A stretch of DNA of 64,000 nt from UHGV virus genome UHGV-2111131. One strand, written 5' to 3'. Below are positions 45,161-47,719 of the stretch, in pieces. The notes under the pieces were generated by a model, which was not told where the DNA came from, searched no databases, and saw only the letters and a program-made list of their open reading frames with translations. How positions within the stretch are numbered: position 1 is the first letter of the stretch; the number at the start of each line of letters is the position of its first letter. The translations under genes were made by a program, and so were the position numbers. The stretch comes from a virus.

Positions 45161-45823
45161 ATGCTCGCCTGGAGGCTGAATTTGCAGCTGAGAATGAACA
45201 TACCACCCAGGGCGACTAGGACTGTTTTTTGTGTCGGTAGCGGTCCGTCACTCACTCGTGAGGACTGTGCTGCTATAGAAAAAACTGGCTGTTCAATCAT
45301 CGCGGTTAACAATTCCTGGCAGATGTTCGATGACATTTATGCCTTATACGCCGGTGATTTGTCATGGTGGAAGCAATACGGATCCACCATACCGGGAGGG
45401 AGATTCCGCAAAGTGACAGCCAACCTGGCGGCGGCGAAATCATTTTCGTTGGAGTACAGGCGATATTGTGGACCGGCGGAAGGGGTAAATAGCGGCGCGC
45501 AGGCTATCAGTCTGGCTGCTGAATCAGGGGCTGAAGTAGTGGTATTAGTCGGCTATGACTGTTCTCTGCAAAACGGCCTTCATTGGCATGGCGCGCACCC
45601 TCAAGCCCTACGGAATCCAACGCAGGTGTCTATTTCAAAATGGCAACAGCAGTTCCTGGATACCCGCAAAAAACACGCAGATTTACATATTTTGAATGCA
45701 AGTAGGAGCAGTGCAATTCAATGTTTCCCAAGAATAAATTTAGAGGCAGTGATCGCGTTATTATCGTCGGCAGTGGCCCAAGCGCCGCAAACTTTGTTGC
45801 GCCGCGCGGAGTGCCGATTATAG
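45161..45823 (+). CDS. GSGPS-motif protein, paralog 1 (glycosyltransferase-like?)
   Basis: CVGSGPSL...IIAVNNS...VVLVGYDCS; start uncertain (45161 or 45194). Confidence 0.45.
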   Translation: MLAWRLNLQLRMNIPPRATRTVFCVGSGPSLTREDCAAIEKTGCSIIAVNNSWQMFDDIYALYAGDLSWWKQYGSTIPGGRFRKVTANLAAAKSFSLEYRRYCGPAEGVNSGAQAISLAAESGAEVVVLVGYDCSLQNGLHWHGAHPQALRNPTQVSISKWQQQFLDTRKKHADLHILNASRSSAIQCFPRINLEAVIALLSSAVAQAPQTLLRRAECRL

Positions 45824-46347
45824 CGGTCAATGGGGCTATCGACTGGCTTAACCGCGCTTCTTATTTTTTCACACTTGATCCATCGCCAGACAATATGCGG
45901 CGCGTTGGTCGTGGCCGCCGTCGCCGTGGTGTTTGTTATTGCATGGCACTACCCGATGTTAAAGAACGTGAAGTCAGAGACGGCATTCTGTGCTTCCGTC
46001 GTGTGGCTGAACGCGGCACAGAGCCAAAAAATACGAGTTCTCCCGAGTGGTGGGCGTGGCGCTGGTCCGCACATTTCGGACTTTGCGAAGATGAGAATGA
46101 AATTGCCAGCGGCAATAGTGCATATGGTGCTCTGAACCTGGCTTTCCATATCGGATTCAAACATGTCGCCCTGGTGGGCGTTGACGCTACACAAGAACCA
46201 CGCGTTCACTCCGGCGGCACGCCAAAAAATCTAAGTCACCTGCCTTTGTTATTCCAGTCTGCGCGTGAACGGATTGACGTTGTTTCATGCGGGAAAATGG
46301 GCGGTATTCCGCAGATGACTCTTAAAGAATGGCTGAAGAATACATGA
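45721..46347 (+). CDS. GSGPS-motif protein, paralog 2
   Basis: IIVGSGPSA...IIAVNGA...VALVGVDAT plus Arg-rich insert; overlaps paralog 1 end by about 100 nt. Confidence 0.45.
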
Positions 46348-47021
46348 TGGCACCCACAATTTATCACCGTATCGACGGTACCAAATACAGGAATGTCTGG
46401 GTTGTTGGTGATCTGCATGGTTGCTACACCAGACTGATGTCCGAACTCCATCGTGTGGATTTTGACCCGGCGCAGGATTTACTGATATCGGTCGGCGACC
46501 TTATCGATCGCGGTACTGAAAATGTCGAATGTCTGGAACTATTGCAGATGCCCTGGTTCAGGGCAGTGATGGGGAACCATGAGCGGCTGATGATTGATGC
46601 GTTAAGTCCAGATGGCAACGTGAATAACTGGCTAATGAATGGCGGACAATGGTTCTTCATGCTGGACACTGATCAGGAAATATTAGCTTGGGCGCTGGTG
46701 GAGCTGGTAAAGCGTCTGCCCTATATCATTGAGTTGAACACCGGGCAAGAAACTATCGTTATAGCCCATGCCGACTATCCGGATAATGAATACCAATTCG
46801 GTAAGGAGGTGCCGCTTTTCAACGTTGTCTGGGCGCGCGAGCGTATCAGTGATTCGATGGATGATATTGGTGGCGAAATTTCGGGCGCAGATCGTTTTAT
46901 CTTTGGTCACACTCCGGTGAAAAGCCCGAAGACATTCTGGAATCAGCAGTATATCGACACTGGTGCCGTATTTTGCGGAAACCTGACATTGATGAAAGTG
47001 AAAGGTGATGGTGCAGCATGA
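46329..47021 (+). CDS. ppp: Ser/Thr protein phosphatase (metallophosphoesterase)
   Basis: GDLHG, GDLIDRG, GNHE motifs. Confidence 0.8.
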
Positions 47022-47719
47022 AGATTGCTTTAGTTTTTCGCTCTGGTGGTGACTATAACGCTTCCGATGTGCAGTGGCTGGTTAATCAACTGCCAAAAGG
47101 CTATGAAATTATTTGCCTGACAGACCTGAAGCGTTTACATGTACCTGGCGTCAAAGTTGTCCCATTGATCAACCAGTGGCAAAAGTGCCGTGGCTGGTGG
47201 GCGAAAATCGAGTTGTTCCGACCGGATATAACCGATGATCTGTTCTATCTGGATTTGGACACGGTTATTGCCGGTGATATACGCCCAATCCTAGAGCATC
47301 CACCAACCAGCTTCACCATGCTTAGGGATTTTTACCATCCACAATATCGTGGCAGCGGTGCCCTGTGGATACCAAATAGTGTTAAAGCGCATATCTGGAG
47401 TTCATTCTGGCAAGATCCGGAAGGTTGGATTTCTCGTTGTGTCACTACTGAGTGCTGGGGTGACCAGGGGTTCTTACGAAAGGTTATGGGCGATGATACA
47501 CCAGCATTTCAGGATCTGTATCCAGGATGGTTTGTAAGTTACAAGGCCGATGTTGTGGAACCTGGTTCAAAATATGCGAGCGCGCGTTACTCCAGGGGGA
47601 ATGGGGCATTACCAAAAGACTGCCGAATAATCTTTTTCCACGGCAAACCGCGACCTCGCGAAGTGTCAGAGGATTGGCTTCCCCTTATCAGCTCGTTTTT
47701 TGAGCGAGAATCAGAATAA
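47018..47719 (+). CDS. GT-A-like glycosyltransferase
   Basis: DxD motif in [11 protein letters not shown]; Rossmann-like N-terminus. Confidence 0.5.

Follow-up and report, generated by a model that had tools for sequence, protein, structure and literature searches.

A candidate protein-glycosylation cassette, pmgO-pmgP-pmgQ with the detached gene dbn, in phage P1 and diverse phages of Gram-negative bacteria

What do two small, overlapping genes with shared motifs do beside a phosphatase gene and a gene for a DxD protein in a phage genome? The question is raised by positions 45161 to 47719 of the viral genome UHGV-2111131, of which one strand of 64,000 nucleotides (the window) was analyzed. 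A first-pass annotation, made from the letters alone, had described two adjacent paralogs, a Ser/Thr phosphatase, and a GT-A-like protein, with a GT-B-like protein further to the left, and had suggested an unrecognized sugar or nucleotide modification function. All five open reading frames (ORFs) lie where that annotation had placed them (Table 1), but they are not unrecognized. A 4.1-kb region around the block matches phage P1 without gaps at 98.8% identity (4101 bp, offset +37999), and the same region is 99.0% identical to the P1-like phage-plasmid RCS47. P1 annotation was transferred onto the window via the P1 match. The block genes are the known P1 genes pmgO, pmgP, ppp, and pmgQ, with dbn as the distant one, and the element itself is not new. 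In RefSeq the P1 genes already carry the labels "alpha-2,3-sialyltransferase," "glycosyltransferase," and "possible glycosyltransferase," and in phage P7 the same genes are called hdmA-D, for "head morphogenesis." The P1 and P7 names are placeholders given by position, and we found no literature on the function of pmgO, pmgP, or pmgQ. Here we report that O, P, and Q, with Dbn, form one conserved mobile cassette, which is recognized here for the first time. With somewhat less than even confidence, we read it as a cytoplasmic multienzyme module for protein glycosylation whose most likely targets are virion proteins.

The PmgO-PmgP pair and its partner enzymes

The motifs reported for the pair are all present. 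PmgO contains GSGPS at residues 26 to 30, IAVN at 47 to 50, and VGYD at 130 to 133; PmgP contains GSGPS at 17 to 21, IAVN at 34 to 37, and VGVD at 152 to 155. Pairwise BLASTP gave a weak match (E of 0.004 over 36 amino acids). Family profiles were then aligned with hhalign; these were built from 34 and 47 homologs, and a natural O-P fusion was left out. This comparison returned a probability of 98% and an E value of 2.4e-13 over nearly the full length, which bears out the claim of paralogy at the profile level. PmgP matched PHROG 2111 (E of 6e-131) and cross-matched PHROG 4603 (E of 2.4e-5). PmgO and PmgP are real and old paralogs.

Both proteins have the DUF115 Rossmann-like fold. The proposed search for DUF115/MAF-like families had named the right family, although both proteins stay below the gathering score of PF01973 (DUF115/MptE-like), at 23.4 bits for PmgO and 20.9 bits for PmgP against 34.6. 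Several orthologs of 40 to 74% identity carry a precomputed PF01973 match. The nucleotide-binding motifs (GxGPS; N; (N)SG; GxD) are invariant in both families and align to those of Cst-II. We identify PmgO and PmgP as a Maf-like DUF115 paralog pair, an identification that is new here. The HWHGxH loop of PmgO is missing from PmgP, which has an insertion of about 35 amino acids and retains the nucleotide-binding motifs. In PmgO, H141 and H143 are invariant and H146 is nearly so; these residues follow the GxD strand, in a low-confidence loop of the predicted structure. The conserved core of PmgO comprises residues 20 to 202, approximately, and its N-terminal 14 amino acids and C-terminal tail are variable. 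PmgO orthologs point to a shorter N terminus, possibly starting from the ATG at 45194. The PmgO family is large and unstudied: its profile found 493 clusters (50% identity) at an E value of 1e-30 or lower and 3805 at 1e-10 or lower. A fold search in BFVD led only to uncharacterized phage proteins.

Comparison with known systems sharpened this assignment. The Maf flagellin glycosyltransferases (DUF115; PDB 5mu5) are proteins of about 630 amino acids with flanking flagellin-binding domains, and their genes lie beside those for flagellin and for CMP-pseudaminic or CMP-legionaminic acid synthesis. In contrast, PmgO and PmgP are bare core domains of about 200 amino acids, 16% identical to Maf, encoded as an overlapping pair with no nonulosonic-acid genes nearby; indeed, flagellin and CMP-Pse/Leg synthesis genes were absent from all of the approximately 50 loci examined. 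The RefSeq and PHROG label "alpha-2,3-sialyltransferase" goes back to the GT42 sialyltransferases Cst-I and Cst-II of Campylobacter, which gave no significant sequence match to a family profile (E of 0.14 to 0.7). Because Escherichia coli K-12 is not known to make CMP-sialic acid (CMP-Neu5Ac), this label is almost certainly wrong for P1. The archaeal 6-hydroxymethyl-dihydropterin pyrophosphokinase MptE and the thiamine pyrophosphokinases are kinases without a tie to GT8, GT4, or sugar methyltransferases. Since such enzymes are the constant partners of the DUF115 pair, we consider a glycosyltransferase role more likely than a pyrophosphokinase role.

The overlap of the two genes, put at about 100 nucleotides by the first-pass annotation, measures 103. 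That annotation had allowed for a sequencing frameshift in one gene; alternatively, the two frames might be joined by programmed -1 frameshifting. In favor of either, pmgP lies in the -1 frame, a natural PmgO-PmgP fusion is known (P0051), and a Rous sarcoma virus-type heptamer, A_AAT_TTA, begins at 45736 in the pmgO frame. Against this, pmgP has its own AGGAG Shine-Dalgarno sequence (45704 to 45708) and ATG (45721), both within the conserved end of pmgO. The overlap also recurs in all 23 loci of diverse lineages in which the genes are adjacent, 21 of which have pmgP in the -1 frame; the length of the overlap depends on the lineage, the pmgO stop lying 1 to 103 nucleotides downstream of the pmgP start. 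The same two-gene arrangement is annotated in P1 and P7 and recurs unchanged in over 80 P1-type contigs. The heptamer, in turn, is not conserved in relatives of 70 to 80% identity. The reading as an artifact or as one frameshifted gene is largely refuted, and we regard it as scarcely credible. Within the overlap, the stretch for the variable first 10 residues of PmgP also encodes, in the other frame, the C-terminal strand and helix that are conserved in PmgO, and the variable run-on tail of PmgO shares its DNA with the conserved GSGPS...IAVN region of PmgP. As to the heptamer itself (45736 to 45742), slippage by -1 would fuse PmgO with PmgP from residue 6 onward, and about 0.13 occurrences are expected by chance in 34 codons; programmed frameshifting at this site was rejected because relatives do not keep the heptamer.

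The DxD protein PmgQ carries YLDLDTV at residues 77 to 83, as reported, and D79-L-D81-T82 is invariant in 30 homologs. This DxD aligns to that of the structures 6mw5 and 5gvv. The GT-A-like call holds: the protein has a real GT-A fold, closest to GT8 members, and its family profile reached a GT8 enzyme among PDB sequences with an E value of 2e-6. PmgQ matched no Pfam family, including PF01501 (Glyco_transf_8), at an E value of 0.1 or lower. Compared with the retaining GT8 enzymes glycogenin, LgtC, Skp1 alpha-galactosyltransferase, and Streptococcus pneumoniae GlyE, to which it is 13 to 16% identical, PmgQ is a minimal protein of 233 amino acids without extra domains. The GT-B-like call for Dbn stood in part. 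Dbn has an EX7E motif (ESLGLTVLE), and its ortholog in coliphage IME392 reaches the Glycos_transf_1 cutoff of 26.4 with 26.5 bits, but P1 Dbn itself falls short at 25.0 bits; a search of PDB sequences with Dbn gave nothing significant. That the block encodes glycosyltransferase-like enzymes is supported. The phosphatase call was likewise correct, as Ppp scored 59.3 bits against Metallophos (cutoff, 21.5), 272 bits against PRK11439 (below the equivalog cutoff of 326), and an E value of 5e-113 against PHROG 246. The ppp gene is translationally coupled at both ends.

Conservation and genomic setting of the cassette

Loci were found with the PmgP profile in one genome per species and in viral contigs, and they were mapped with one hidden Markov model (HMM) per P1 protein. 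The viral contigs were searched with a distant alignment; a scan with a close alignment gave only near-identical P1 copies. PmgQ accompanied PmgP in 17 of the 20 genomic loci (from the genomes of 18 species, with two other loci added), and the three exceptions were contigs that end within about 1 kb. Among 25 nonredundant viral contigs, PmgQ was present in all and PmgO in 21. PmgO precedes PmgP wherever the two are adjacent, and PmgQ lies downstream except in one locus (L109), which has the order P-methyltransferase-Q-O. The O-P-Q order is common to P1-like, lambdoid, HK97-like, and jumbo phages and to chromosomal islands that encode immunoglobulin (Ig)-like proteins. All hosts seen are Gram negative, ranging over Alpha-, Beta-, and Gammaproteobacteria and Gemmatimonadota, and no sugar-activation genes accompany the cassette.

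The composition of the block in P1 differs from that of the cassette elsewhere. ppp lies between pmgP and pmgQ in close P1 relatives only and is absent from every other cassette, so the earlier view of the phosphatase as a member of the block was not sustained. Because the distant P1-like phages (L112, L119, L121, L122, and L130) have the order PmgM-O-P-Q-PmgS, with P abutting Q, ppp is taken as an insertion in the P1 lineage, an unrelated phosphatase gene outside the cassette. The opposite holds for dbn, 6 kb away in P1. In IME392, a 116-kb coliphage unrelated to P1, O, P (with a 37-nucleotide overlap), a Dbn ortholog (E of 7e-98), and Q are contiguous, which ties dbn to the O-P-Q set and supports the suggestion that the distant GT-B-like gene belongs with the block. 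In the chromosomes of Serratia and Buttiauxella, the P and Q homologs likewise have a Dbn ortholog about 3 kb away. dbn is thus a detached member of the same module.

Gene fusions and insertions add sugar methyltransferases to the set. PmgO is fused to a TylF-type sugar O-methyltransferase in P0314, and a TylF-type methyltransferase is fused to PmgQ in ORF373 of XacN1. Four loci have a methyltransferase dependent on S-adenosylmethionine between P and Q, and an FkbM methyltransferase is found in the cassette of L113. In several proteins, one DUF115 domain directly follows another. In the Xanthomonas jumbo phage XacN1 (L185, positions 5324 to 11220), O-P and the methyltransferase-PmgQ fusion are followed by a protein of 1088 amino acids with a weak PKD/Ig-like match (E of 1e-4); the Stenotrophomonas jumbo phages CM1 and RAS14 carry the same cassette, as does Xoo-sp13. 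A small fourth DxD protein (IIWLDVDS; L104, 11254 to 11835; L108, 8549 to 9133; L110; L111) stands after or before PmgQ in some loci and matched no Pfam or PHROG family.

The setting of the cassette was most telling in HK97-like prophages. In nine loci from Pseudomonas, Ochrobactrum, and metagenomic relatives, it lies within the head module, directly behind the gene for the major capsid protein; the module reads terminase-portal-protease-major capsid-(connector)-O-P-(methyltransferase)-Q-(fourth DxD protein)-head closure. Starting from a three-sequence alignment, a scan gathered 80 loci that encode close homologs of the HK97-like capsid protein, each taken with 4 kb of flanking sequence, and found 18 additional loci in which the capsid gene is followed by pmgO. 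Across the resulting 24 loci, which include six found earlier, the capsid protein ends with C-terminal Ser/Thr residues in 22 (tails such as ...GSLTAS, ...GSLSES, and ...GDLSASS), compared with 10 of 62 loci in which no PmgO gene follows. Counted as distinct tail types, 8 of 10 with a PmgO gene end in Ser/Thr versus 2 of 27 without one (Fisher P of about 5e-5, uncorrected for shared ancestry). A second type of cassette, in HK97-like prophages of the Pseudomonas type (L198, 5313 to 5909 and 7706 to 8539; L211), has PmgO after the capsid gene and, a few genes on, a 277-amino-acid protein with the signature GLGDSIY...PWPELY. This protein belongs to PHROG 6804 (unknown function) and has no PDB or Pfam match; P0217 and P0322 are fusions of this domain with PmgO, and it might be a GT9-like glycosyltransferase.

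Two other settings were found. In lambdoid prophages, including Citrobacter phage phiNP, the cassette sits between the lysis genes and the terminase. In chromosomes of Pseudescherichia, other Enterobacteriaceae, and Serratia, homologs of O, P, and Q are interleaved with genes for Ig-like proteins of the Big_1/invasin-intimin type (for example, L103, 2241 to 15359, and L003, 816 to 5115), and a metagenomic protein (P0231) combines PmgO with Big_1 and Big_13 domains in one chain. Several of the Big_1/invasin-type island proteins lack signal peptides.

Candidate substrates of the module

The genomic contexts point to a protein target, probably of the virion, in Gram-negative phages; this pointer is new here. 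In the reading that we favor, PmgO, PmgP, PmgQ, and the detached Dbn would be four soluble glycosyltransferases that cooperate in the cytoplasm during lytic growth of P1. The timing is suggested by the sigma-70 promoter of the operon: because the C1 repressor operator Oppp covers it, the genes from pmgN to pmgQ are predicted to be expressed in the lytic cycle and not to serve lysogenic conversion. The product of the four enzymes would be a short oligosaccharide attached to a protein, and the acceptor would most likely be one of the structural proteins of the virion. Within the set, PmgO and PmgP would act as a Maf-like DUF115 pair, probably as a heteromer, and PmgQ (GT8, retaining, and DxD/metal dependent) and Dbn (GT4-like) would add hexose-type sugars from host UDP-sugars. 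Since the cassette lacks sugar-activation genes and all hosts seen are Gram negative, the donors would be common host nucleotide sugars; CMP-Kdo is our guess at a candidate donor for a sialyltransferase-like fold in such hosts. On the chromosomal islands, the module would decorate Ig-like surface proteins.

Two kinds of known systems offer parallels. Mycobacteriophages are the one group with proven virion glycosylation, and capsid and tail-tube subunits are described as bearing the glycans at their C termini (Freeman 2023, cited after PMC12619734). The systems of Che8 and others resemble the cassette in that the glycosyltransferases are phage encoded, and the C-terminal location of the glycans recalls the HK97-like relatives, with their cassettes in the head module and their adjacent capsid proteins ending in Ser/Thr. 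They differ in enzyme families and in having actinobacterial rather than Gram-negative hosts. The second parallel is cytoplasmic adhesin glycosylation. In the serine-rich repeat protein (SRRP) system, with GtfA/GtfB and the GT8 Gly enzymes, and in the autotransporter heptosyltransferase systems of AAH and TibC, a surface protein receives its sugars before it is exported, from several soluble glycosyltransferases that include a GT4-type enzyme, a paralogous partner, and GT8 enzymes that extend the chain. The chromosomal copies of the cassette among Big_1/invasin-like genes resemble this arrangement. However, the DUF115 pair is unrelated in sequence to the enzymes of those systems, accessory secretion genes are absent, and the tie of the cassette to Big_1 proteins consists of neighborhood and fusion.

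Several observations weigh against virion glycosylation. The cassette of P1 has no head genes beside it, and that of IME392 lies near DNA metabolism genes, outside the head module; the lysis-terminase junction of the lambdoid prophages is a generic moron site. A phmmer search of the window and of the phage loci, with the island proteins as queries, found no Big_1 homologs, and the Ig-like domain fused to PmgO could be a binding module and not a substrate. The capsid tail association carries the caveat of uncorrected phylogeny. Finally, no glycan is reported for P1 virions, and structural and proteomic papers on P1 do not mention any. Dispensability for plaque formation, on the other hand, fits a nonessential decoration function. 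A CRISPR interference (CRISPRi) table and the deletion survey cited there give pmgO, pmgP, ppp, pmgQ, and dbn as nonessential, and the survey of P1 single-gene knockouts reports that 24 of 29 had no plaquing defect and unchanged antirestriction on EcoK, EcoA, and EcoB hosts. The place of the five genes among these 24 rests on the CRISPRi table, where each is entered as "NE" with reference to the survey. A bolder form of the proposal would make O-P-(Dbn)-Q, as carried by the model phage P1, the first system for O-glycosylation of virions (or of Ig-like surface proteins) in Gram-negative phages. In it, a minimal Maf-like DUF115 heteromer would use a universal host donor such as CMP-Kdo, and GT8 and GT4 enzymes (with methyltransferases in some phages) would complete a short glycan on C-terminal Ser/Thr residues of capsid or other exposed proteins, so that phages of enterobacteria, pseudomonads, xanthomonads, and others would wear a glycan coat; we consider it unlikely in this full form.

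Other substrates can be imagined for the same enzymes. During infection, the substrate of the four glycosyltransferases might be lipid A-core, or a different lipid-linked glycan of the envelope, at the inner membrane face, and the altered P1 receptor region would then limit superinfection or the loss of progeny on debris. The lipopolysaccharide (LPS) conversion of a lysogen that the first-pass annotation had considered is disfavored, since the operon is repressed in the lysogen. Even in the lytic cycle, only a small share of LPS is renewed per latent period, and LPS, flippase, and ligase genes are absent beside the cassette in every locus. Envelope remodeling also leaves unexplained the position in the head module, the link to capsid C-terminal Ser/Thr residues, and the Big_1 fusions and operons. 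We judge such remodeling unlikely. It might instead be a host protein that is modified: PmgQ and its partners could glycosylate a cytoplasmic translation, defense, or stress factor, as bacterial GT-A toxins do, and so favor lytic growth. Four transferases with sugar methyltransferases, however, indicate an oligosaccharide and not the single sugar typical of effector toxins, and a host-specific target is ill suited to the range of hosts over which the cassette is spread. The knockouts, going by the CRISPRi table and the survey, lack a plaque phenotype, and PADLOC gave no matches; we think host takeover improbable. A defense or antidefense role was rejected on the same PADLOC result.

There remains the nucleotide side of the original suggestion, in which PmgO and PmgP would be enzymes of the MptE or thiamine pyrophosphokinase kind acting on nucleotides or cofactors, or the set would glycosylate DNA bases against restriction. 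P1 is not known to have a hydroxymethyl-base pathway, and its DNA is cut by ordinary restriction enzymes. The constant partners of the pair are GT8, GT4, and sugar O-methyltransferases, and its closest structure is a protein glycosyltransferase. The unchanged antirestriction reported for the 24 knockouts argues against a role in DNA modification or antirestriction if these genes, listed as "NE" in the CRISPRi table, are among them. Nucleotide or DNA modification is disfavored by these results, together with the C1-repressed lytic operon, and we hold it to be very improbable. Protein glycosylation in the cytoplasm, with virion proteins as the most likely target, is the reading that we retain.

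Operon structure, neighboring genes, and significance

The features of the operon are collected in Table 1. Oppp has the sequence TATGCACTAATTAATTT (reverse strand), with four mismatches to the operator consensus, and therefore lies outside a scan of the window for the 17-bp C1 consensus with at most three mismatches. That scan gave 10 matches (0.33 expected by chance), among them 34234 to 34250, 44097 to 44113, 47721 to 47737, and 49862 to 49878, which fits an intact P1 immunity regulon. A promoter-like site was found at 44972 to 45000, and a late promoter is annotated further upstream in P1. A second C1 operator before pmgR-pmgS lies at 47770 to 47786.

Table 1. Features of the pmgN-pmgQ operon and of dbn in the window
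Feature	Position	Strand	Assignment	Basis
dbn	38228..39226	+	332 aa; putative GT4-like GT-B glycosyltransferase	Directly downstream of ban (DnaB homolog), 6 kb from pmgO-Q
PpmgN	about 44965-44991		Predicted sigma-70 promoter	Transferred P1 annotation
Oppp (Op83)	45004..45020	-	C1 repressor operator; overlaps PpmgN	Transferred P1 annotation
pmgN	45064..45219	+	51 aa; first gene of the operon	Transferred P1 annotation; HMM map of loci
pmgO	45161..45823	+	220 aa; DUF115/MptE-like, Maf-like putative glycosyltransferase	
pmgO/pmgP overlap	45721..45823	+	103 nt; pmgP in -1 frame	ORF coordinates, alignments
pmgP	45721..46347	+	208 aa; second, divergent DUF115 paralog	PHROG 2111, hhalign
ppp	46329..47021	+	230 aa; lambda NinI/PrpA-like Ser/Thr metallophosphatase	Metallophos, PRK11439, PHROG 246
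pmgQ	47018..47719	+	233 aa; GT8-fold (glycogenin/LgtC-like) DxD glycosyltransferase	
OpmgRa	47721..47737	+	C1 operator	Start of next operon, pmgR-pmgS; hence end of the pmgO-pmgQ operon

The first gene of the operon, pmgN, overlaps the annotated start of pmgO by 59 nucleotides and, on the HMM map of loci, is confined to P1-type relatives. It has a GTG start and a GGGAGA Shine-Dalgarno sequence. CRISPRi scored pmgN as "essential," yet its deletion is viable (PMC10695390); polarity would not explain the score, because no downstream gene of the operon was scored essential.

Further genes near the operon may be misnamed as well. PmgM (44419 to 44997) resembles a VRR-NUC nuclease (21.2 bits, just under the cutoff), PmgL (44171 to 44416) has a weak treble-clef zinc-ribbon match, and neither looks "morphogenetic" by these matches. 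The "acid phosphatase" Pap of P1 (49356 to 49862) matches PF25109, the haloacid dehalogenase (HAD) phosphatase domain of polynucleotide kinase-phosphatase, with 45.8 bits, and it also matches PHROGs named polynucleotide kinase; its historical name may be misleading. A run of 10 Ns at 62568 to 62577, probably a scaffold gap or a masked stretch, breaks the ORF after pacA (presumed pacB).

For 20 years, pmgO, pmgP, pmgQ, dbn, and ppp of the workhorse phage P1 have borne placeholder names. Four of the five, all but ppp, are shown here to belong to one enzyme module common to lambdoid, HK97-like, P1-like, and jumbo phages and to adhesin islands. Even if the proposed function is not confirmed, the comparative data correct the misleading labels "alpha-2,3-sialyltransferase" and "morphogenetic protein" and exclude ppp from the unit. 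The hypothesis can be tested quickly, since P1 single-gene knockouts were already made in the survey cited above. If it is true, DUF115 protein glycosyltransferases would include a new minimal class, and glycosylated virions would be known from Gram-negative phages as well as from mycobacteriophages, with a bearing on antibody recognition in phage therapy, on adherence to mucus, and on host range.

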